NCBI GenBank assembly: GCA_964612105.1
Contig: CAZTEU010000001.1
Coordinates: 4,047 to 68,046, forward strand
Reading direction: 5' to 3'
Length of the DNA stretch: 64,000 nucleotides
From: an uncultured Gammaproteobacteria bacterium
GTDB taxonomy: Bacteria; Patescibacteriota; Patescibacteriia; Magasanikbacterales; UBA922
Shown here: positions 3,742-49,422 of the stretch, piece by piece
Layout of the letters: each line of letters opens with the position of its first letter
How positions within the stretch are numbered: the first letter of the stretch is position 1
Position numbers and translations under genes: made by a program
Notes under the pieces: generated by a model
Told to the model about the DNA's origin: nothing
The model's database searches: none
Seen by the model: only the letters and a program-made list of their open reading frames with translations

Positions 3742-5148
3742 ATGAAAAAAGCATTATTTTTTGGAGTAGTCTTTTCGTTTCTTATTCTCATAGGTTCTGC
3801 TTCTGCTGAATCTTTTAATTTTTGGGTAAGTAACAACATACTCCTATCTCCAGGTGAGCATTTTGCCGGTGATACAGTAAACGTATACACTGTTGTTGTT
3901 AATAACAACTTTGATAATTTGACTTCTAAAGTGGAATTCCTAAACCATGGAAAAGTTATAGGTAGTACTTCTGTGTCTAATCTAAGTTTTGAAGAAGCAA
4001 AGCAAGTAAAAATAGGATATAAACTACCCGCAGGAAAACAGGAGTTTGCAGTACGCCTTTCTAATGTGCGTGTAGTAGAAGACAGCTCATCAAGATCTTT
4101 GTCATCTGAAGAGGTGGCAACATTTGATTCACAAGCAGTTTTTGATATAGATATTGACACAGATAATGACGATATTGGTGATAAGAAAGATCCTGATGAT
4201 GATAATGATGGGCTTAGTGACTCAGAAGAATATGAAATTGGATCTGACAAAAAGAAGGTAGACACAGATGGGGACACAATAAATGACAAGATTGAGGTAG
4301 ACAGAGGTCTAGATCCTACGAAATCAGATACAGATGGGGATGGTGTAAAGGATAATAAAGACCTGTTCCCAATCGACAAAGGAGAATGGGTTGATGCAGA
4401 TGGAGATGGAATTGGTGACAACAGCGATCCAGATGATGATAATGATGGATTAAGCGATAAAGATGAAAAGAAGTTGGGCAGTGATCCACACAAGGCAGAC
4501 ACAGATGGTGACGGGTTAAGCGACTCTGAAGAGAAAAAATATGGTAGCAGTCCTACAAAATCTGACACGGATGGTGATGGTATAGATGATAAGACGGAAG
4601 TTGCCAATAAGACAAATCCAGCAAATGCTGATTCAGACAATGATGGACTTAGTGACTCACAGGAAGTTCAATACAAGACAGATCCAAATAATAAGGATTC
4701 AGATGGTGATGGACTTAATGATGGAGAGGAGATAAAAAAAGGAACCAATCCTCTCAAAGAGGATTCAGATGGTGATGGTGTTCCAGATTTGACTGATATG
4801 TTTCCTTTAGATGAGAATGAGTCTGTCGATACAGACTTGGATGGAATAGGGAATAACGCAGATGAAGATGATGACAATGATGGACTAAGTGATAAAGAAG
4901 AGGAAGAGAAGGGGACAGATCCATTACTTTCAGATACAGATGATGATGGTGTTTCTGATGCTGATGAAGTGAAAGATGGGACAGACCCGCTAGAAGGGGA
5001 CACAGATGGAGATGGAACGAAGGACTCAAAAGATGATGATCCTTTGGTTCCTTCCAAGTTTAATAAAAAGCGTGCGGTCGGAATTGGGGCGTTAATCTCA
5101 TTTATACTAGCTGTTGGATTCTACGGAGCATATAGCGTTAAGAAATAA
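3742..5148 (+). CDS. Secreted Ca-binding protein with about 14 thrombospondin type-3-like repeats and a C-terminal TM anchor
   Basis: Signal peptide. Repeated DxDxDGxxDxxE / DTDGDG motifs. Ends in the hydrophobic helix AVGIGALISFILAVGFYGAYSVKK. Confidence 0.6.
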   Translation: MKKALFFGVVFSFLILIGSASAESFNFWVSNNILLSPGEHFAGDTVNVYTVVVNNNFDNLTSKVEFLNHGKVIGSTSVSNLSFEEAKQVKIGYKLPAGKQEFAVRLSNVRVVEDSSSRSLSSEEVATFDSQAVFDIDIDTDNDDIGDKKDPDDDNDGLSDSEEYEIGSDKKKVDTDGDTINDKIEVDRGLDPTKSDTDGDGVKDNKDLFPIDKGEWVDADGDGIGDNSDPDDDNDGLSDKDEKKLGSDPHKADTDGDGLSDSEEKKYGSSPTKSDTDGDGIDDKTEVANKTNPANADSDNDGLSDSQEVQYKTDPNNKDSDGDGLNDGEEIKKGTNPLKEDSDGDGVPDLTDMFPLDENESVDTDLDGIGNNADEDDDNDGLSDKEEEEKGTDPLLSDTDDDGVSDADEVKDGTDPLEGDTDGDGTKDSKDDDPLVPSKFNKKRAVGIGALISFILAVGFYGAYSVKK

Positions 5149-19165: not shown

Positions 19166-19194
19166 AGAAAATCGCTTGACTTTTGTATTTTAAT
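19166..19194 (+). promoter_or_regulatory. Sigma70-like promoter upstream of the GC-rich orphan gene
   Basis: TTGACT, a 17-nt spacer, TATAAT, all in AT-rich sequence. Confidence 0.45.
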
Positions 19195-19326
19195 AGTATA
19201 TAATCCCGCTCGTTCAAATAGGGGGGTGAACACTCGCCCTTTTCATATGCCTTAGTCCTGTAGAAGACAGGGCAAAGGCTTCACCCAGCACTCCACAAAG
19301 TGCTTTGACTAGAGGAAAAATACAGG

Positions 19327-20283
19327 ATGACTACCACCCAGCAAAGGTTTGAGTTCGGAAATGGAATTCAAGCAGACGTGCTCGCAAACGCACTCAGAGG
19401 CTCATCAGCGATGCTACTCGCAAGAAGCGGGGACACTATCGGAGCGCATGCAATCCATCGTCCAGACGGAGCAGGTCTGCAAGACCCGCCGTCGGACATC
19501 GAAGACTCCGTGCTCTTCTCCACCGGCCTGAGGTTCGTCCCGGGAGGAATCTCCCTCATCGGCTTCACGCCAACTGGCACAAACGGATTCGAAGCATGTC
19601 TCGACGCATTCGACGGCGAGCTCATCCGTCAGTTCGGGGACACGGAGGACACCATCCTCCAGCACTTCTTCACGGCGCCCACAAGGCTGATCACACGACG
19701 ACAGATTCGCGCCTATGCCACGGTTGATGGTAGCCGGAAGCAGATCTTCAAGAACGAGCGCATCACCTGTGGTGATATCGAGCAACAAGATGATGATCTG
19801 AATGCCGCATGCATCGCAATCAGCGACGGACGCAGTCGTCACCGCCTCCTGAAGGTCAATCCCATTACGGGACGAACCATCGAGGCTGCCGGCTTCGCCA
19901 GTGCGATCAAGCACGTCAAGATCAGCCCGAACGGGTTCGTCTACGTGACGCTCACAGACGGAACACTGCGAATCTGCGGTTTCTACCGCAATCGCGTTGA
20001 TTTCAACCGAGTCGGCTCGATTCACCACGTGCGCAAGGTCGTGTTGCTCAAGGGACAGCAACTCGCCATTCTGGGCTCTGGTCGCCATCTCCTCCGAATC
20101 CTGAGCTACGGCTCTCACATCAAGAGGATCTCACTCGAAATCCCGGGATGCATGTCTGAGGAAAACACTGTGGCTCTCGGCTTCAGCGGATGTCATCCGG
20201 TCATCGTCGATCGGTCCACCGGTGTGACAGCGTTCCTCCCGCCGATCTCGGACATCGTTCCTCTCAACTGTCATTCGAACTGA
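19327..20283 (+). CDS. Orphan 318-aa protein encoded in a GC-rich (about 57%) island; no recognisable domain
   Basis: A long ORF whose composition contrasts sharply with the flanks. The antisense ORF 19414..20118 is a GC artefact. No signal peptide. Confidence 0.5.
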   Translation: MTTTQQRFEFGNGIQADVLANALRGSSAMLLARSGDTIGAHAIHRPDGAGLQDPPSDIEDSVLFSTGLRFVPGGISLIGFTPTGTNGFEACLDAFDGELIRQFGDTEDTILQHFFTAPTRLITRRQIRAYATVDGSRKQIFKNERITCGDIEQQDDDLNAACIAISDGRSRHRLLKVNPITGRTIEAAGFASAIKHVKISPNGFVYVTLTDGTLRICGFYRNRVDFNRVGSIHHVRKVVLLKGQQLAILGSGRHLLRILSYGSHIKRISLEIPGCMSEENTVALGFSGCHPVIVDRSTGVTAFLPPISDIVPLNCHSN

Positions 20284-20501
20284 CCCTCGCTGGGTGGCCT
20301 GGCACCCCCGTCCTCGGTTTTGTGGCCTTGGATGGGGGTGCTGGGCGTATCTCTTAAACATACCAATATCCGATTTTATCGGATGAGGTTGTCTAGTGAT
20401 ACACCGGCTGTACCAAAGTACAGCCAGAATTCTGGATATATAACTATGTTGTATAACCAGAATTACCCTGTACATACAGTGTACAGGGTAATTATAACCA
20501 C

Positions 20502-21550: not shown

Positions 21551-21737
21551 ATTATTTGCATTATAGCAGGGATTTTACTCCGTGCAAGTACTAAAATGCA
21601 AAAAAGTAAACGATTTGTTTACTTTTATGTGTTTTTTGATGAGTCTATTAGACTGATTTTTGTTCCTAATACAAAATAATTGTGTATCTGCGCACAAGCC
21701 ATGTTGGTTTGTGACGACAGGTCGCCCCAAGGAGGGG

Positions 21738-22292
21738 ATGATGTTTGGGAAAAAAGTGTTTGTTCTGATGGTCGCATCTGCGCTGTTCGTTGGCTGTATG
21801 GCCGAGACCGAGGAAGATCTTCCTACCACGAAGCAGATTCAGGGCTCTGTCGCATACCAAGGTGTCGCGGTGGCAGGAGCTGAGGTGGTCGCGACAACCG
21901 GAGATGAGCCGGATTCGCCAAGCTTCGCAAGTGCATCGGATGATCTGGGCCACTTCTCGCTGGAGATGCCGAAAGATCTTCCGATCTGCAAAGTGCAGGC
22001 CGCTGTCGAACTCGATGGCAAGTTGCTTATTGGTGAAGCTCTGGATCCTGGCGAGTTGGACCCAATCGAGCTGAGGGAATTCACTGAGGAAGAGGCACAA
22101 GAAGCCCAGAAATCCTTCGATCTGGAGGTGGAAGGAGTCAGTACCTTTGTTGGGTACAAAGGGTGGGGTTGTGCGTGTCACAAGCAAGGCAAGTACTTCG
22201 GGAAGCTCTGCTGTGGCTACTACGAACTGAAAAAGCCTCAGAACGCAACCTTCTGCTCCATCCCACTACCGTTTGTCTGCTACTGGAAGTAG
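21738..22292 (+). CDS. GC-rich island lipoprotein with a Cys-rich C-terminus
   Basis: AAGGAGG SD, then MMFGKKVFVLMVASALFVGC (a lipobox). The C-terminal GWGCACHKQGKYFGKLCCGYYELKKPQNATFCSIPLPFVCYWK carries 8 Cys. I take the start at 21738, not the ORF-track 21660. Confidence 0.5.
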   Translation: MMFGKKVFVLMVASALFVGCMAETEEDLPTTKQIQGSVAYQGVAVAGAEVVATTGDEPDSPSFASASDDLGHFSLEMPKDLPICKVQAAVELDGKLLIGEALDPGELDPIELREFTEEEAQEAQKSFDLEVEGVSTFVGYKGWGCACHKQGKYFGKLCCGYYELKKPQNATFCSIPLPFVCYWK

Positions 22293-22309
22293 CATTCCAC
22301 TCTTTGATA

Positions 22310-22347
22310 GGGAGGGGTAGTAAAAACTACCCCTCCTTTCTTCTTTT
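22310..22347 (+). terminator. Intrinsic terminator after the lipoprotein gene
   Basis: GGGAGGGGTAGtaaaaaCTACCCCTCC then TTTCTTCTTTT. Confidence 0.6.
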
Positions 22348-22349
22348 AC

Positions 22350-22500
22350 TAACATAGCAAGCGCAGACCTACGTCGGATGAACCTATGTCTACAAAGGGA
22401 TACCTGTTCGGTAAGAGAACACAACGACCTCAAGGGAGTCGGTCCGCTTTCGAGCGGATTGACTCCTGGTCGTCGATTCACACACTACACGTGTGTTTTT
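22350..22500 (+). ncRNA. Candidate small structured RNA (GC-rich, nested stems, UUCG tetraloop, own terminator)
   Basis: CGACC..GGGAGTC[TCCGCTttcgAGCGGA]GACTCC.GGTCG nested helices. Ends with a CACACactacacGTGTG hairpin and T7. Confidence 0.3.
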
Positions 22501-22514
22501 TTATTAAGTAGTTT

Positions 22515-23906
22515 TTGATTTCATGGTATAATAATGCTATGACAAAACAAAAAACAAAAAAGCTTCCCAAAAAAGCCTATGTTCTTACGGTAGACATGGG
22601 TTATGGTCACCAACGTGCTGTACACCCATTAAAAGATATCGCTACAAATCCTGTGGGTTGGAAAGGTAATCCTATAATCTCGGCAAATAATTATCCGGGA
22701 ATTCCAAAGAGCGATCGTAAGAAATGGGAGGGAAGCAGAAAACTTTATGAAACAATTTCTAGAATGAAACACACTCCAATCATTGGTAATTGGATTTTTG
22801 GTGCGATGGACCATTTTCAGAAAATACAACCGTTTTACCCAAAGAGAGATTTATCAAAGCCAATAATGCAGGTAAAACAAATCTATAAAATGATTAGAAA
22901 GGGTTGGGGAAAAGCCCTTATAGATGAGCTTAATAAAAAACCTCTTCCACTTGTCACATCTTTTTTTGCAACAGCCTTTTTTGCAGAGGAGCATGGATAT
23001 AAGGGAGAAATATATTGTTTGTGCACTGACACGGATATTTCACGTGCTTGGGTTGCACTCAATCCTAAAAAAAGTAGAATAAAATATTTTGCACCAAACA
23101 AAAGAGTAAAAGAGCGTCTTGGTTTGTATGGAGTAAAAACAAGTAATATATATATAACTGGTTTTCCTCTACCAAAAGAAAATATTGGAGGAAGAAATCT
23201 GGAAATATTAAAGAGTTCTATTGGTTGTAGGATTAGCAATCTAGATCCAAATAATAGGTATCAGAGGAAATACGAAAAAACACTTAATCAATTTCTTGGG
23301 GCCCGTTATTGCAATATGCATGCAGACCATAAATTAACCATTACCTTTGCTGTTGGTGGTGCTGGAGCACAAAGAGAAATTGGAGCAGAGATTTTAGAAA
23401 GTTTGCATGATTATATAGACAAGGGAGAAGTTAACCTAAATCTTGTTGCTGGATCTCGTGCAGACGTGTACGAGTATTACTACAATGTTGTAAAAGATCT
23501 GCATTTAGAAAAAAAGCATGGGGGTAGTGTTAAAATAGTTTACAACGAGGATAAGTTAAAATATTTTGATGAGTTTAATGAGATTTTACTCACAACAGAT
23601 GTGCTTTGGACTAAACCAAGTGAACTGTCATTCTACTCTGGGCTTGGTATTCCTATTATTATGGCGCCAACAATTGGATCGCAAGAGGTGTTTAATCGTA
23701 CGTGGTTACATTCGATTGGTTCTGGTATGGAACAGGAAGATCCACGACACTGCAATGAATGGCTCTTCGATTGGTTGGAGTCTGGGTGGTTAGCGCAGGC
23801 AGCGATGGAAGGCTTCTTGGATGCGCCTAGAATGGGGGCATACCACATAGAGGACATTGTATTAAAAGGAAAAAAGAGTGAGATAGAAGATATGCATCTA
23901 ATGTAA
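22515..23906 (+). CDS. GT-B glycosyltransferase, MGDG-synthase/UgtP-like (GT28-like)
   Basis: The N-terminal VLTVDMGYGHQRA resembles the G.GH..A motif of MGDG synthase/UgtP. Length 463 aa. Confidence 0.45.
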   Translation: MISWYNNAMTKQKTKKLPKKAYVLTVDMGYGHQRAVHPLKDIATNPVGWKGNPIISANNYPGIPKSDRKKWEGSRKLYETISRMKHTPIIGNWIFGAMDHFQKIQPFYPKRDLSKPIMQVKQIYKMIRKGWGKALIDELNKKPLPLVTSFFATAFFAEEHGYKGEIYCLCTDTDISRAWVALNPKKSRIKYFAPNKRVKERLGLYGVKTSNIYITGFPLPKENIGGRNLEILKSSIGCRISNLDPNNRYQRKYEKTLNQFLGARYCNMHADHKLTITFAVGGAGAQREIGAEILESLHDYIDKGEVNLNLVAGSRADVYEYYYNVVKDLHLEKKHGGSVKIVYNEDKLKYFDEFNEILLTTDVLWTKPSELSFYSGLGIPIIMAPTIGSQEVFNRTWLHSIGSGMEQEDPRHCNEWLFDWLESGWLAQAAMEGFLDAPRMGAYHIEDIVLKGKKSEIEDMHLM

Positions 23907-28584: not shown

Positions 28585-28703
28585 TTTCTTCTTCTGCAAA
28601 TACATTTGCAAGAAAAGGAACGTATGCACATGGTGTACGTACGCCCCGCCCCCTCCGTTGGAGACTCGTCGTCCATGTGCATGCTGGTCACCCCCCTTTG
28701 ATG

Positions 28704-29231
28704 TCAGCGGTTGTCCGAGATGGTGTCCATCCACTCGATGTTCTTCGCTTTCGGCTTGATTGCTGGGTTCAGGCGAACCCGTAGCGTCTTCTTGTCGACC
28801 TTAGGAACCATCTGGCTGGTACGCTTGGTCTCGGGCTCCGCACATCTCTCAACCTGGGCAGGTGTCGGCTTCCTCCTCTCCCCAGTTTTGATGTTTCTTC
28901 TGTGCTGAAGGTCGAGCTGTTCTCGTTGTCTTCTTCTCTCGATTCTCCACACTAGGATTCCCAAGAGAAATACCACTAGAACGCCACCAAGCGTCATCAG
29001 GAAGAAATGGCTCTTGGTCTGCCCAAGTCTTCGCCAAATCCCACTGGATCCACCAAAGGCCAATGCCCAGTCACTGTAACCGAGCATCAGGAAGAAACAG
29101 ACTGTGACAATCAAGTCACGGATCCACTCCATTGTTCTCTGTGTCATTGCGCCCTCCTGCGCTGACCGCTGTACGGTCGGGTTTGTGTCCTTAGGACGCG
29201 TTTTTATATCATAAGTATGCCAATTTGTCAA
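28704..29231 (-). CDS. Small 2-TM membrane protein encoded in a GC-rich island; the start is probably an internal Met
   Basis: GC-rich ORF. Two hydrophobic helices. Arg-rich C-terminus. Confidence 0.4.
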   Translation of the reverse strand: MTNWHTYDIKTRPKDTNPTVQRSAQEGAMTQRTMEWIRDLIVTVCFFLMLGYSDWALAFGGSSGIWRRLGQTKSHFFLMTLGGVLVVFLLGILVWRIERRRQREQLDLQHRRNIKTGERRKPTPAQVERCAEPETKRTSQMVPKVDKKTLRVRLNPAIKPKAKNIEWMDTISDNR

Positions 29232-32614: not shown

Positions 32615-32640
32615 ATCCAGACCTACGTCTGGATTTTTGA
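32614..32640 (+). terminator. Terminator after cca
   Basis: AAATCCAGACctacgGTCTGGATTTTT. Confidence 0.6.
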
Positions 32641-32781
32641 TACAAAAAAATGGCTATTGCCATAACGTTTATTTTATTGAACCACGAGCCGGGACCATAC
32701 TACGCATTCGCAGTGATGATCCCGGCTCGGGTAACAGGCGCCAGATACCCCGCAGGTATCCTTGTGGTCGCCGGTCAGCGG

Positions 32782-32855
32782 TCGGGTGGGCTGGATTTGA
32801 ACCAGCGACCTTGAGCTTTGTAGGCTCACACTCTACCTGACTGAGCTACCCCCCG
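32782..32855 (-). tRNA. tRNA whose apparent anticodon is ACA (it would read Cys UGU); identity needs checking
   Basis: Minus-strand read CGGGGGGTAGCTCAGTCAGGTAGAGTGTGAGCCTACAAAGCTCAAGGTCGCTGGTTCAAATCCAGCCCACCCGA. Anticodon stem TGAGC/GCTCA, loop CTACAAA. T-arm GCTGGTTCAAATCCAGC. Confidence 0.7.
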
Positions 32856-32882
32856 AAAAAAGAACAAAGAACAATTAATCAA

Positions 32883-33063
32883 GCGGAACCCCCCAACCAG
32901 TGCGTCATCCGACTGTCCGCATGGAGGAGGGGTTCCGCTGTGCCAGCGGTGTTTTGCAAGCTACGGACTCCCGCAACCAGCCCTCAGGTGACTACCATGT
33001 GAGGCTACCGCTGGAACGAAGTGGTGGAGGGATTAGAACCCTTGTGCTTCGACGACTCACCAC
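32883..33063 (-). other. GC-rich structured flank of the tRNA: a 10-bp inverted repeat, and a tRNA-like minihelix with an acceptor-like stem and T-arm-like hairpin
   Basis: GCGGAACCCC...36 nt...GGGGTTCCGC at 32883-32938. GTGGTGG[AGGGattagaaCCCT]...TCACCAC at 33021-33063. On the minus strand the hairpin loop reads TTCTAAT, which is T-loop-like. Confidence 0.3.
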
Positions 33064-33179
33064 GGTACGAAGATTACGAAAATCATTTTACATTATGAAT
33101 ATAAAACTGTCAAACAGTATTTATTAACATATACACAATACATTGCTTTTGTGCGTAAAATCTAGTACAATATGCATAT

Positions 33180-39235: not shown

Positions 39236-39511
39236 ATGTCCAAAGACTATTACAAAATCTTAGGTGTAGAAAAAAGTGCATCTCAAAAAGATATAAAGAG
39301 TTCGTTCTATAGTCTTAAAAAAGGAGTAGATCCTGAAAGTGACCCATACAAAGACCTATATCAGGCCTATGTGGTAATTAGTAATCCTAAACTTAGAGAG
39401 AAGTATGATTTATATGGAGAAACGTATGAAGATAGGCCGAAGAAATTTTCTGACTGGCTGTACGGAACTGGAATATCAGAGCTTGGGGATATAATAGATT
39501 TATTAGATTAG
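39236..39511 (+). CDS. J-domain-like protein lacking the HPD motif, derived from a duplication of the dnaJ 5' end
   Basis: The first roughly 50 nt are about 85% identical to the dnaJ start ([13 protein letters not shown]). The HPD position reads KKGVDPESD. Confidence 0.55.
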
Positions 39512-39513
39512 AC

Positions 39514-40605
39514 ATGTCCAAAGACTACTATAAAATTTTAGGCGTAGAAAAAAAAGCAACTCAAGAAGAAATTAAAAAGACTTTCAGAAAACTGGCTCAC
39601 AAATATCATCCAGACAAAAAAACAGGTGATGAGGCAAAGTTCAAGGAAGTAAATGAGGCTTACCAAGTTCTTGGGGACGAAAAGAAGCGCCAGCAATACG
39701 ACCAGTTTGGATCTAACTTTGACCAACAAGGTGGTTTTGGTGGTGGAATGGGCTGGGATGACTTCATGCGTGCAACAAGAGGTGGAGGAGGCTTCTCTGG
39801 TAATTTTGGTGGTGTAGATTTAGGGGATATATTTGGTGATATATTTGGATTTGGTGGACGCTCACGTGGAAACCGTAAAGCAAGAGGTCGTGATATACAA
39901 GTGGATGTTGAGATAGATTTCAAAGATGCTGTGTATGGCACAGAAAAACAAATACATCTTGCAAAACACAATGCTTGTAATGACTGTAATGGAAGTGGTG
40001 GACAGCCAGGATCTGGAACAGAAACGTGTAAAGAATGTAATGGACAGGGGCAAGTTATGCGTGTTCAGAGGACAATACTTGGTGCCATGCAGACAGCAAG
40101 TGCCTGCACAAGCTGTAGCGGAAGAGGACAAATAATTAAAGAAAAATGCAAAAAGTGCAACGGGCATGGTGCATTACGAGAAAATACAGAGATAAGTATA
40201 AAGATTCCAGCAGGGATAGATGATGGACAGTCCATTAGACTATCAGGAAAAGGGGAGTACCCTGGACAAGGCGGTGTGGCTGGAGATTTATATGTGCAAA
40301 TTCATGTAAAGGCAGACAAAAAGTTTAAACGCGATGGTTATGATATATTAAGCGAAACGACAATTTCATATCCACAAGCTGTTTTGGGTGACCAGATAAA
40401 AATACAAACAGTAGATGGTGAAAAAACACTTGTCATTCCTGCAGGAACCCAATCTCATCAGAAGTTTAGACTAAAAGATCTTGGGGTGACACACCTAAAT
40501 GGAAGTAGTCGTGGTAGTCAGTACATTACAGTTGTAGTGGATGTGCCCAAGAAAGTAAATAAAAAGACAAGAAAGTTGATTGAGGAATTAAAAAAAGAAA
40601 TATAA
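39514..40605 (+). CDS. dnaJ: Chaperone DnaJ
   Basis: J domain with HPD, a G/F region, and four CxxCxGxG zinc-finger repeats. Confidence 0.95.
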
Positions 40606-40652
40606 ACAATAATTATTGGATTATCCACAGATGATACAGAATTTTAGCAGTT

Positions 40653-40680
40653 AAATGAGTGCAACTTCACTCATTTTTTG
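40653..40680 (+). terminator. Terminator after dnaJ
   Basis: AAATGAGTGcaacttCACTCATTTTTT. Confidence 0.55.
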
Positions 40681-40689
40681 ATAATATAA

Positions 40690-41040
40690 ATACAACTTCA
40701 ACCCATAACCGGAGACCTACTCCATGCCACCAGGACTAGTAAGAGACTACTCGTTCAGACCAACAGCAATGCACAGGAAGTGCATGATGCAGGGATGTCG
40801 AGGATCTCGAGGGGGGTGTGTGCATTGCAGACACACTGGCTTCAAGCTTTCAAAGTCGGAGATTCGAGAGATCGATAATTCCGAACGGAGAAGCAGAAGG
40901 CGGCGTCGAATGCGCTAGACCCATGGTTCCAGGCAAAAACAACTAGTGGGGTTGAAGATGCAAAAGGACATTGTTTCGACCCCGACCTTTTACTTTGATT
41001 ACTCAATGTAAAAGTTAGGGGATAGGTCGAAGCAAACATA
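40690..41040. other. About 350-nt noncoding region with moderately elevated GC and several hairpins; candidate ncRNA
   Basis: No convincing ORF; the 64-aa ORF 40724..40918 is Arg-rich and low-complexity. GTGTGTGcattgcagaCACACT and TCGAGgatcTCGA stems. Ends at the AAAGAACCCGGttGGGTTCTTTTTTT terminator (41041..41066). Confidence 0.25.
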
Positions 41041-41064
41041 AAAGAACCCGGTTGGGTTCTTTTT

Positions 41065-49071: not shown

Positions 49072-49422
49072 ATGGGACATAAAAAACCTGAGTCAGACTT
49101 CGACCTTCATTTTGTAACAGCCTCTCCATTTCAAAAGTGGCTGGACAAGATAAACCCAGAAACTGCATTGTTGTTGGCAACCTTTTGGAACTGTATGATG
49201 GTAGTCATCTTATCTGCACCTCTCATCTGGGTAACCACTGACATGGATATGAGCTCTTCCATCGTATACGTTGCGGAGTATTGGTCTGAGTTTGCCCTCT
49301 TTATGATTGCGGCATTGGCACAACTCGCTATTCTCCTCATAGCAATGATTTCGTCTGTTCTGGCCTTCTCTGGACTTCTTTATCTGCTCGATAGGGTGTG
49401 CATGCGCTGTTCCAAATCCTGA
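49072..49422 (+). CDS. Small 3-TM membrane protein in a GC-elevated islet
   Basis: ORF in a region of about 48% GC, followed by a terminator near 49505..49540. Confidence 0.3.
   Translation: MGHKKPESDFDLHFVTASPFQKWLDKINPETALLLATFWNCMMVVILSAPLIWVTTDMDMSSSIVYVAEYWSEFALFMIAALAQLAILLIAMISSVLAFSGLLYLLDRVCMRCSKS

Follow-up and report, generated by a model that had tools for sequence, protein, structure and literature searches.

A putative lipoprotein cassette of persistently deviant GC content in a Patescibacteria genome

Described systems resembling the locus

Patescibacteria live attached to other cells, and to our knowledge the surface molecules behind this attachment are almost entirely uncharacterised. 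We analysed a GC-rich block (island B) in a window, i.e. the whole 64,000-nt stretch of DNA under study, and compared it with the closest described systems. Genomic islands linked to tRNA genes have a deviant composition and orphan cargo, with a tRNA gene at <1 kb, as at island B. By contrast, there is no integrase and no tRNA 3'-end repeat here, the tRNA adjoins neither island B nor the nearby island A, and the slot is defined by a DUF6938 gene, not by the tRNA. Phage morons (PMC3594210) are, like island B, single genes with their own translation signals and a factor-independent terminator, inserted between unrelated genes, with a GC content unlike that of their neighbours and often with a surface protein or lipoprotein as product. 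However, island B is not in a prophage (it is flanked by ung and envelope genes), has no phage matches and contains no recognisable promoter (none of sigma-70 type was found for the lipoprotein gene), and diverged genomes retain its homologues in one and the same chromosomal slot. In an integron comparison, island B is a single cassette, the window holds no repeated hairpin family, and the attC ends R''(RYYYAAC)/R'(GTTRRRY) are absent at the ends of the hairpins at 22309–22338 and 22424–22473.

Two further systems are related by composition. In Borrelia vlsE/vls, a surface lipoprotein gene of ~50% GC lies in a genome of ~30–38% GC, as is the case for island B (PMC11499132); the vls cassettes have 49% versus 28.6% GC, and selection tied to gene conversion is believed to keep their GC content at this level (PMC11499132). 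Island B differs in having no silent array, strong G skew, sequence homology or within-population variation. For bacterial GC-biased gene conversion, the reported effect is a shift in mean GC3 that sets core genes with recombination apart from those without (PMC4450053). Under this hypothesis GC3 is raised more than GC1 and GC2, as in island B, and the likeness extends to an effect that is independent of optimal codons and includes untranslated flanks, and to a roughly constant logit-scale offset across genomes of different base composition. The magnitude in the island B family (+0.31 to +0.54 GC3) nevertheless appears far larger, and the borders are sharp.

Anatomy of island B and its predicted lipoprotein

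Positions 21689–22496 form a sharply bounded block of 54% GC in a Patescibacteria genome of 37.6% GC, which is also the window mean. At the left edge (21689), GC rises from 20–27% to 50–63% within ~10 nt, and it reverts at 22496; the 30-nt profile goes from 0.23 to 0.47–0.63 at 21689 and from 0.43 to 0.23 near 22496, and the 200-nt profile gives 0.48–0.585 in island B versus ~0.33–0.39 in its flanks. The block contains one lipoprotein gene, a strong terminator, a structured spacer of ~130 nt and a second hairpin followed by T7. Together with island A (19205–20440) it flanks rpmG, tRNA-Trp and ung, as the original prediction had described; the neighbours around the two islands are MraY, an orphan, L33, Ung, DUF6938 and EamA. 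The features are as follows.

21689..22496, no strand assigned: GC-rich block (island B) with sharp borders (30-nt and 200-nt GC profiles)
21729..21737, + strand: Shine–Dalgarno (SD) site AAGGAGGGG, closing the ~50-nt GC-rich 5' untranslated stretch at 21689–21737 (sequence)
21738..22292, + strand: lipoprotein gene, 184 aa from ATG 21738, stop included (ORF, GC1/2/3, homologues, alignment)
21738..21797, + strand: signal peptide and lipobox, MMFGKKVFVLMVASALFVG followed by C, with predicted lipidated Cys20 (PROSITE-type lipobox pattern)
21828..22079, + strand: predicted prealbumin-like (CarboxypepD_reg-like) beta-sandwich, residues 31–114 (AF2, Foldseek, sub-threshold Pfam)
22155..22289, + strand: Cys-rich module, residues 140–184, YKGWG-C-A-C-H-x9-CC-G-Y-Y-x11-C-x7-C-YWK, 6 Cys and 1 His (family alignment)
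22309..22348, + strand: terminator 1, 13-bp stem AGGGAGGGGTAGT/ACTACCCCTCCTT, loop AAAA, tail TCTTCTTTTA (top-ranked site in the terminator scan)
22349..22479, + strand: structured GC-rich spacer, the 'RNA-like segment' (folds; unique in the window; no Rfam match; absent from orthologous loci)
22480..22503, + strand: terminator 2, hairpin ACACAC-TACAC-GTGTGT then T7, right border of the GC-rich block (terminator scan, GC profile)
22524..22532, + strand: extended -10 TGGTATAAT belonging to the DUF6938 gene that follows (ATG 22539), outside the island (sequence)

Our preferred reading, in which we place slightly more trust than doubt, is that island B is a self-contained cassette (a short GC-rich 5' UTR with a strong ribosome-binding site, the gene, a terminator and an untranslated tail) for a lineage-restricted surface lipoprotein, and that it is long-standing in a variable envelope slot and not a recent tRNA-targeted insertion.

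The island does hold a genuine gene for a predicted lipoprotein. GC1/GC2/GC3 are 0.60/0.39/0.61, and this GC3 compares with 0.22–0.37 in ~60 other genes of the window (0.26–0.31 in the neighbours), which indicates that the frame is genuinely coding and that its codon usage looks foreign. The strong SD and the lipobox FVGC that had been noted earlier are both present: AAGGAGGGG lies upstream of the start, and LMVASALFVGC fits the PROSITE-type pattern. The likelier start is ATG 21741, 5 nt past the GGAGG core of the SD. Sites of the AAGGGAGGGA type occur upstream of all family genes; a conserved 5' UTR structure was not found across the family (RNAalifold -2.4 kcal/mol, nothing convincing). The lipobox search (PROSITE PS51257-type) asked for a charged n-region, a hydrophobic h-region and [LIVMFWSTAG](2)-[LIVMFYSTAGCQ]-[AGS]-C within the first ~40 residues. 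The match in the window protein ends at Cys20 with two Lys ahead, and all of the family members match (6/6).

The lipoprotein family is unannotated and consists of six members among ~15 billion proteins. A representative search returned five homologues (E 1.8e-21 to 3.9e-6), a profile search returned known members only and a viral scan nothing; one candidate from a metagenome scan was rejected as a false positive (GDP-mannose dehydratase locus). All six members have the lipobox and the predicted prealbumin-like beta-sandwich, and they carry a C-x-C-H...CC-G-x-Y...C...C module that is partly lost in member P0006. As to the refuting condition set with the original prediction (a match to a common housekeeping family of similar GC in relatives), the protein does have relatives, but none is a housekeeping protein, and within their own genomes they stand out as GC-rich.

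AF2 models most of residues 31–114 with pLDDT 85–92, and the best Foldseek matches of this sandwich in PDB are transthyretin/prealbumin-like (E ~4e-3, TM 0.3–0.57), which are generic. The N-terminal domain appears to be of the same fold class as CarboxypepD_reg (PF13620, a seven-stranded prealbumin-like beta-sandwich), DUF4198 and NikL-type lipoproteins, has the start motif G-x-V-x-x-x-G-x-P-[IV]-x-x-A-x-V in common with them and, like the island B protein, these are often lipid-anchored or periplasmic. By contrast, the scores are far under the cut-offs: CarboxypepD_reg reaches 13.6 bits (E 0.092; gathering threshold 32.3 bits), the DUF4198 match to the sandwich region is also sub-threshold, and the precomputed CarboxypepD_reg hits of family members P0003 and P0005 are graded 'faint' or 'weak'. 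The NikL-type model (NF058648, NCBIfam) matches three of the six members weakly (best E 1.4e-4) and does not match the window protein; unlike in NikL systems, no nickel/cobalt transporter genes (ECF/Nik) are adjacent to island B. The Cys-rich C-terminal module is absent from the CarboxypepD_reg, DUF4198 and NikL-type families.

The last 45 residues contain six cysteines, not eight as first counted; eight is the number for the whole precursor. Their order, C-C-CC-C-C, is conserved in five of the six members, which share GCxCH...CCGxY...C...P..C, and P0006 is without exactly Cys1, Cys4 and the His. This co-loss suggests a C1–C4 pairing, and because the two cysteines were dropped together, the module may be read as a disulfide-bonded knob. 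Alternatively, it could bind metal through CxCH instead of forming disulfides; the haem site of c-type cytochromes (CXXCH) is absent, the motif in all five members that have it being C-A-C-H, in which a single residue separates the cysteines. Structure prediction of the tail is of low confidence (AF2 pLDDT 33–62; 52.7 for the module modelled alone), in contrast to the confidently modelled sandwich, and the module has no sequence match in Pfam or PDB.

C-C-CC-C-C is the framework of inhibitor cystine knots (knottins). The island B tail has the same number (six) and order of cysteines, and the C1–C4 bond of this framework is compatible with the paired loss in P0006; the loops, however, are atypical compared with canonical knottins (C1-x1-C2 and C4-x13-C5), a His is conserved after Cys2, and there is no sequence or structural match. 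Of the original idea of a disulfide-knotted or toxin-like tail, the conserved Cys-rich module is upheld, and similarity to toxins or knottins was not found. An effector of toxin or bacteriocin type, secreted or tethered at the surface and with the tail as its active knotted peptide, would accord with the cysteine framework, with C1–C4 bonding and with the fast evolution of the protein. We consider it very unlikely, because Pfam, NCBIfam, PHROGs and PDB give no toxin, knottin or bacteriocin similarity, the loop lengths differ from those of canonical knottins, an immunity or export partner was not found nearby, and the tail is joined to a lipid-anchored stalk and not preceded by a cleavage site.

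In the reading that we favour, the gene encodes a surface lipoprotein of a Magasanikbacteria-like member of Patescibacteria. The precursor would undergo Sec export and lipidation at Cys20, be tethered to the cell membrane's outer leaflet, and display a prealbumin-like beta-sandwich stalk with a small C-terminal knob carrying three disulfides. The most likely role would be to bind a partner on the envelope or on a host cell. Such a clade-restricted, fast-evolving, predicted disulfide-rich lipoprotein beside envelope-glycan genes is a concrete candidate for the attachment interface.

Terminators and the structured tail

Both predicted terminators were recovered. Terminator 1 ranks first in a scan that gave 13 sites versus 3.6 expected; its stem (22309–22338) has 7 GC pairs in 13 bp and is followed by a U-rich tail, and its 3' arm CCCCTCCTT (22330–22338) complements the gene's SD exactly. 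A comparable G-rich hairpin lies 10–20 nt past the stop in all family genes. The second hairpin (22480–22496) and its T7 close the segment downstream.

The GC-rich stretch between them was likewise found to contain nested helices around a UUCG hairpin. Region 22340–22505 folds at -59.0 kcal/mol (z = -5.25 versus dinucleotide shuffles), and its long hairpin (22424–22473) has an inner stem at 22434–22448 / 22453–22467 with the loop UUCG at 22449–22452; TCCGCTttcgAGCGGA (22443–22458) lies inside it. The reverse strand folds almost equally (z = -5.10), and two adjacent G.U pairs of the long hairpin on the + strand become A.C mismatches on the - strand.

An independent small RNA had been proposed here. 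In this explanation, 22349–22503 would be an sRNA gene or a processed 3'UTR-derived sRNA with a UUCG-capped helix and its own terminator, in keeping with a structure far beyond that of shuffled sequences, the canonical hairpin and T7 at its end in + strand orientation, the tandem G.U pairs on the + strand only, and a GC content far over the intergenic background. We nevertheless regard it as distinctly unlikely and the proposal as not supported. There is no promoter-like site between terminators 1 and 2, and Rfam 15 gives no match in 22340–22505 at E<=10 and nothing at gathering thresholds (the nearest hit, HSUR at 22482–22603, has E 1.3 and 30 bits, the threshold being 50 bits). An equally good fold is obtained for the reverse strand, no counterpart was found in the orthologous intergenic regions of the relatives L030, L031 and L005, and the segment is single-copy in the window, without relatives in viral, phage or plasmid collections. 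Moreover, similar structured 3' regions trail islands A (z -11.5) and C (z -4.9). All copies of the segment in available sequences are identical.

Most likely, the segment is the untranslated 3' tail of the gene, with tandem terminators. Its stable hairpin and terminator 2 may block read-through into the almost leaderless DUF6938 promoter. Terminator 1 looks efficient, so the tail may rarely be transcribed, and it might be functionless carried-along DNA.

Three other identities were considered and rejected: (i) a degenerate gene copy (a tblastn hit at 22342–22485 has E 2.7, and nucleotide alignment is at chance, with 126/300 shuffles equal); (ii) a DUF6938 leader or riboswitch, as the extended -10 at 22524..22532 is conserved (the same TTTTTGGTATAAT / TTTTTTTGGTATACT stands just ahead of the DUF6938 start in L030 and L031) and places the segment upstream of that promoter, and the segment is absent in relatives; and (iii) a repeated palindromic element, as the segment is unique in the window and its GC-rich non-coding stretches share no motif.

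The slot and its persistent GC-richness

The cassette slot is variable and lies directly upstream of an envelope-glycan cluster (DUF6938 glycosyltransferase-like, EamA transporter, glycosidase-like). In relatives, the same slot is filled either by a homologue that has diverged or by a GC-rich lipoprotein gene of an unrelated kind. The homologues P0002 (L030) and P0003 (L031) occupy the same slot upstream of the DUF6938–EamA–glycosidase-like cluster as in the window, and their position relative to the DUF6938 gene is the same whether the upstream neighbour is ung or pyrD. The flanking proteins are 70–84% identical, compared with 34–46% for the lipoprotein, and the adjoining DUF6938 gene is saturated at its four-fold sites (same third base 0.33–0.39 versus 0.27–0.35 expected). 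Yet the lipoprotein gene is GC3-rich relative to its flanks in all five family members with DNA context (+0.31 to +0.54): 0.61 versus 0.28 in the window, 0.55 versus 0.18 in L030, 0.85 versus 0.47 in L031, 0.56 versus 0.25 in L035 and 0.89 versus 0.35 in L032.

We call the site flanked by mraY and rpmG slot A, the one upstream of DUF6938 slot B and the one after metK slot C. Slot B contains unrelated GC3-rich lipoprotein or membrane-protein genes in L005, L013 (and L012) and L022. The window genes in slots A and B show no detectable homology to those of L005, nor do the ones in slot C to those of L011; when the other island proteins were searched against Pfam, PHROGs and NCBIfam, nothing was found.

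These observations bear on how the block arose. Recent horizontal transfer would mean that GC-rich donor DNA (an orphan gene and downstream intergenic sequence) arrived near tRNA-Trp and is still unameliorated, islands A and B being two events at a tRNA-linked hotspot. The sharp composition borders, the foreign codon usage and the orphan status of the island genes fit such a history, as do the unrelated GC-rich genes in the same slots of the closest genome (L005) and the empty slot A of L030, and Patescibacteria have been reported to carry many genomic islands (PMC12455944). We hold it to be unlikely, since the same-slot homologues in L030 and L031 are still GC3-rich by ~+0.35 despite saturated flanking synonymous sites, and the family was not found in GC-rich contexts (~15 billion proteins) or in phage, plasmid and viral sets; the island itself has no phage, plasmid or IMG/VR relatives. 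The proposed role of tRNA-Trp as an integration hotspot is not supported either. This gene is separated from islands A and B by intact genes, the slot lies ~4.5 kb from it in L030, it is absent from the 11.8 kb of L031, and in P0002 and P0003 the slot tracks DUF6938 instead. No integrase and no tRNA-derived, att-like or other significant flanking repeats were found near the island; a 13-nt direct repeat, TGTGTTTTTTGAT (21628) versus TGTGTTTTTTTAT (22492), was rejected as a target-site duplication (12/13 match, equalled by 39/500 shuffles). With tRNA-Trp not the anchor and integrase and att repeats lacking, the evidence points to a long-standing cassette in a variable slot.

An antigenic-variation or diversity-generating locus, i.e. 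vls-like gene conversion or the target of a diversity-generating retroelement (DGR), could also raise GC; a surface lipoprotein gene that is rich in GC although its genome is AT-rich is reminiscent of the Borrelia vls cassettes, and a DGR lies 4 kb from the L031 homologue. This reading is largely refuted, and we rate it as extremely improbable: there are no silent cassettes or gene repeats within 64 kb, the GC skew (+0.14) is near that of host genes and far from the 0.52 of vls, the L031 template/variable repeat pair (1–75 / 515–589) belongs to another gene, and the population copies are identical. The abrupt change in composition might alternatively reflect an assembly chimera or contaminant DNA fused to a Patescibacteria contig, an explanation of negligible probability. 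It is refuted by the junctions of island B, which are 100% identical in four independently assembled JGI contigs, and by the island A gene, which is present on 17 contigs (JGI, ENA, Logan, NCBI), and independent relatives display the same pattern. The organism occurs in JGI 3300009375, 3300009106, 3300007508 and 3300009008.

Deviant GC is routinely taken as a sign of newly acquired foreign DNA. Here, homologous genes at one and the same chromosomal position retain it, in genomes whose neutral sites are saturated. From this, the GC-richness is probably an old, locus-bound property and no leftover of a recent tRNA-targeted insertion. It would most likely be kept up by repeated recombinational exchange of cassettes with GC-biased repair, and selection on the whole transcript is another candidate; all copies of the island B locus from this population are identical, so that they give no direct indication of either recombination or diversification. 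Wholesale replacement accounts better than gradual biased conversion for the very sharp borders and for the occurrence of unrelated genes in one slot. If the persistence of the deviation is upheld, composition-based island detection misreads such loci, and these tiny genomes would hold spots under a very different mutation, repair or selection regime.

A broader idea, which we put forward tentatively and think rather doubtful, is that slots A, B and C in this Patescibacteria clade hold self-contained envelope-protein cassettes whose synonymous GC is actively held 30–50 points above the genome across lineages saturated at ordinary synonymous sites, with proteins diverging beyond recognition. 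If true, this would call for a locus-specific GC-raising process, such as very strong recombination-linked biased conversion or a dedicated cassette-exchange system supplied by an unsampled GC-rich pool, and ordinary horizontal transfer followed by amelioration would not be the cause. The known effect of GC-biased conversion appears far smaller than the +30–50 points seen here. On the logit scale, the GC3 shifts of the five family genes with DNA context are 1.3–1.9, with one of 2.7, and gene GC3 correlates with host GC3 at r = 0.85 (n = 5), which is the sample on which the constant-offset argument is based.

Composition and anatomy of the GC-rich block

The window belongs to a Magasanikbacteria-like patescibacterium; nearly all of the 25 related loci matched by its DUF6938 protein are Patescibacteria MAGs. 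The predicted compositional island is confirmed as a sharp block at 21689-22496 (hereafter island B), with a GC content of 50–63% against a window mean of 37.6%, and the rise and drop each occur within ~10 nt. Four JGI contigs, 100% identical across stretches of as much as 6.2 kb, rule out an assembly artefact at its junctions. Two other GC-rich blocks are referred to as islands A and C. The genes concerned are:

21738..22292, + strand: lipoprotein gene, 184 aa, the sole gene in island B
19327-20283: island A gene, GC3 0.67
28704-29231, minus strand: gene of the third island (C), GC3 0.62

The island B gene is real and encodes a predicted lipoprotein, with a leader that fits the lipobox rule; its likelier start is ATG 21741, 5 nt past the GGAGG core of AAGGAGGGG. 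The GC content by codon position is 0.60/0.39/0.61, whereas GC3 is 0.22-0.37 in ~60 other window genes, and only islands A and C are other clear GC3 outliers. Elevated GC extends into the untranslated flanks of the island B gene. Elsewhere, a 116-aa ORF at 49072-49422 (GC3 0.50, without a Pfam match) is possibly a fourth outlier in composition, though a weaker one.

A small lipoprotein family and its genomic slot

A word-indexed search with the lipoprotein returned only the self-match. Searching 1.84 billion representatives exhaustively with HMMER recovered five relatives (i.e. P0002, P0003, P0005, P0006 and P0007; E 1.8e-21 to 3.9e-6), together with two unrelated repeat proteins that match the sandwich domain only. 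A profile search added no further members. The gene thus represents a lipoprotein family that is new and very small, unnamed in Pfam, NCBIfam and PHROGs.

A lipobox is present in all six members, and five share the pattern G-C-x-C-H ... C-C-G-x-Y ... C ... P-x-x-C near the C-terminus. In P0006, precisely Cys1, Cys4 and the histidine have been lost, as would be expected if the two cysteines formed a disulphide. The original prediction counted eight cysteines in the last 45 residues; six lie there, eight being the number in the whole precursor. The Cys-rich lipoprotein itself stands, and it is probably disulphide-bonded. The C-C-CC-C-C order of the tail is that of inhibitor cystine knots, but the loop lengths differ. 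AlphaFold2, run on the six-sequence alignment, models residues 31-114 as a confident beta-sandwich (pLDDT 85-92) and the Cys module unreliably (pLDDT 33-57); modelling the tail alone brought no improvement (pLDDT 52.7). A Foldseek search of the PDB gave nothing beyond generic prealbumin-like sandwiches (E ~4e-3), in agreement with family matches to CarboxypepD_reg, DUF4198 and NikL, all sub-threshold. For the Cys-rich tail, neither Pfam nor the PDB gave a sequence match.

The genes for P0002 (locus L030) and P0003 (locus L031) lie directly upstream of a DUF6938-EamA-glycosidase-like cluster, as in the window, and follow pyrD and ung, respectively. Flanking proteins in these loci are 70-84% identical to those of the window, the lipoproteins 34-46%. 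In L005, the closest genome (DUF6938 84% identical), the slot upstream of the DUF6938 gene holds a different 150-aa lipoprotein without detectable homology to the window protein, and in L013 (and L012) and L022 it is taken by further GC-rich genes, for lipoproteins or membrane proteins. The P0005 and P0007 genes are placed elsewhere, after M23-peptidase or FtsEX genes. The slot is defined by the envelope gene cluster and not by the tRNA. The suggestion that tRNA-Trp served as an integration hotspot fails, since it adjoins neither island A nor island B, no integrase gene was found near island B and no border repeat is significant; moreover, tRNA-Trp is inverted in L005, ~4.5 kb from the slot in L030 and absent from 11.8 kb of L031 sequence.

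L031 also contains a diversity-generating retroelement (bAvd and reverse transcriptase, 1-2009), whose template and variable repeats (515-589 and 1-75) are 84% identical and differ at template adenines. The lipoprotein homologue, 4 kb away, was considered and rejected as its target.

Terminators and the RNA-like segment

The hairpin at 22309-22338 (terminator 1) is the strongest terminator in a 4-kb scan, which also found the hairpin at 22480-22496 with its T7, so that both predicted elements hold. A strong G-rich hairpin of GGGAGGG or GTGGGTGG type occurs 10-20 nt past the stop in all family genes; terminator 1 is accordingly part of the cassette (i.e. the lipoprotein gene with its untranslated ends). 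The ~150 nt beyond it are specific to this genome: in the orthologous spacers of L030 (120 nt) and L031 (93 nt) there is nothing besides the hairpin and the DUF6938 promoter, and that of L005 contains three unrelated hairpins.

The stretch between the hairpins is far more stably folded than shuffled sequences (z = -5.25), but the opposite strand is nearly equal (z = -5.10). Tandem G.U pairs of the long helix occur on the + strand only, a weak hint that the structure matters in RNA. The segment has no Rfam match at E<=10 and no promoter-like site. It occurs once in the window, has no counterpart in phages, plasmids or IMG/VR, and resembles neither the lipoprotein gene nor other GC-rich non-coding stretches. 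All of this speaks against an independent function; the proposed small RNA is unsupported, and we regard it as improbable. Islands A and C, too, are trailed by strongly structured tails. A DUF6938 leader was rejected because the conserved extended -10 of that gene (TGGTATAAT, 22524-22532) comes only after the segment. The segment would instead form the untranslated tail of the cassette, with a stable hairpin; its back-up terminator may shield the next promoter.

The 3' arm of terminator 1 (CCCCTCCTT, 22330-22338) is the exact reverse complement of the lipoprotein gene's Shine-Dalgarno sequence (AAGGAGGGG, 21729-21737) and thus identical in sense to an anti-Shine-Dalgarno; the L032 homologue has the same kind of match (GGGAGGG / CCCTCCC). 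Such a match may allow 5'-3' pairing or ribosome competition. From the end of the extended -10 to the ATG of the DUF6938 gene there are 6 nt in the window (22524-22541) and 9-10 nt in L030 (6730-6760) and L031 (5875-5900). No Shine-Dalgarno is present, and the gene appears nearly leaderless.

Persistence of GC-richness and further GC-rich slots

Wherever DNA is available, the family gene stands out by its GC3 within the host genome (n = 5).

GC3 of family genes and their flanks
Window lipoprotein gene: 0.61 vs 0.28
L030 homologue: 0.55 vs 0.18
L031 homologue: 0.85 vs 0.47
L035 homologue: 0.56 vs 0.25
L032 homologue: 0.89 vs 0.35

The shifts are 1.3-1.9 on a logit scale, with one of 2.7, and family-gene GC3 follows host GC3 (r = 0.85, n = 5). 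Between these genomes, four-fold sites of the flanking DUF6938 gene share the same third base at 0.33-0.39 vs 0.27-0.35 expected and are essentially randomised, so a vertically inherited gene should long since match host composition. Two options follow. A diverged copy may have entered this slot anew in each lineage from a GC-rich pool, but no member of such a pool was found among ~15 billion proteins or in the sets of phage, plasmid and viral sequences. The alternative is a force specific to the locus that keeps cassette GC high; codon selection alone is insufficient, because the untranslated flanks are also GC-rich. None of the known parallels fits fully: phage morons (PMC3594210) differ in that no prophage is found at island B, Borrelia GC-rich vls lipoprotein cassettes (PMC11499132) in that island B has neither silent cassettes nor G skew, and recombination-linked GC enrichment (PMC4450053) in that the effect at island B appears much larger than described. 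A better description of island B is a fast-evolving cassette of long standing, placed in a variable envelope slot and kept GC-rich by some process. This persistence is the interesting residue, resting on few genomes.

In L032, a GC-rich block (730-2982) between host-like genes (GC3 0.33-0.37) covers three genes:

orphan 171-aa gene, GC3 0.85
M23 peptidase gene, GC3 0.64
lipoprotein homologue, GC3 0.89

The pattern seen at island B recurs at two further slots, mraY|rpmG and after metK. The former holds unrelated GC-rich genes in the window (island A, an orphan of 318 aa; GC3 0.67) and L005 (432 aa; GC3 0.91), and is empty in L030. Within the island A region (19176-20500), a near-perfect sigma-70 promoter (TTGACT-17-TATAAT, 19176-19204) precedes the gene, the GC-rich block begins straight after the -10, and the very structured tail of 273 nt (z = -11.5) has a perfect 14-bp palindrome at its end (20461-20493). 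The latter slot holds:

28611-29231, minus strand: island C, a single-gene island encoding a small membrane protein, GC3 0.62

Its tail is strongly structured (z = -4.9), and in the matching place, on the same strand, L011 (12780-13250) carries a 51-67% GC island that encodes an unrelated two-TM protein of 105 aa.

A tRNA-Cys with the unusual anticodon ACA lies in a ~450-nt GC-rich unit (32640-33115, - strand) with its own TTGACA-17-TAAAAT promoter and hairpin+U7 terminator; both its leader of 225 nt (z -3.97) and its trailer of 142 nt (z -5.36) are strongly structured, and neither matches an Rfam family. Two GC-rich (44-50%) non-coding stretches, 2528-2854 and 40606-41064, are also strongly structured (z -6.2 and -5.0) with no convincing Rfam match, and may be undescribed RNAs. 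At 4190-4968, within a gene for a 468-aa secreted protein (3742-5148), a 41-nt repeat occurs seven times and encodes Asp-rich DxDxDG-type motifs, by sequence a calcium-binding repeat-like array. A 62-nt segment encoding a DnaJ-type N-terminus opens two adjacent genes (39236-39297 and 39514-39575; 84% identical), a 91-aa truncated J-domain gene adjoining a full dnaJ.
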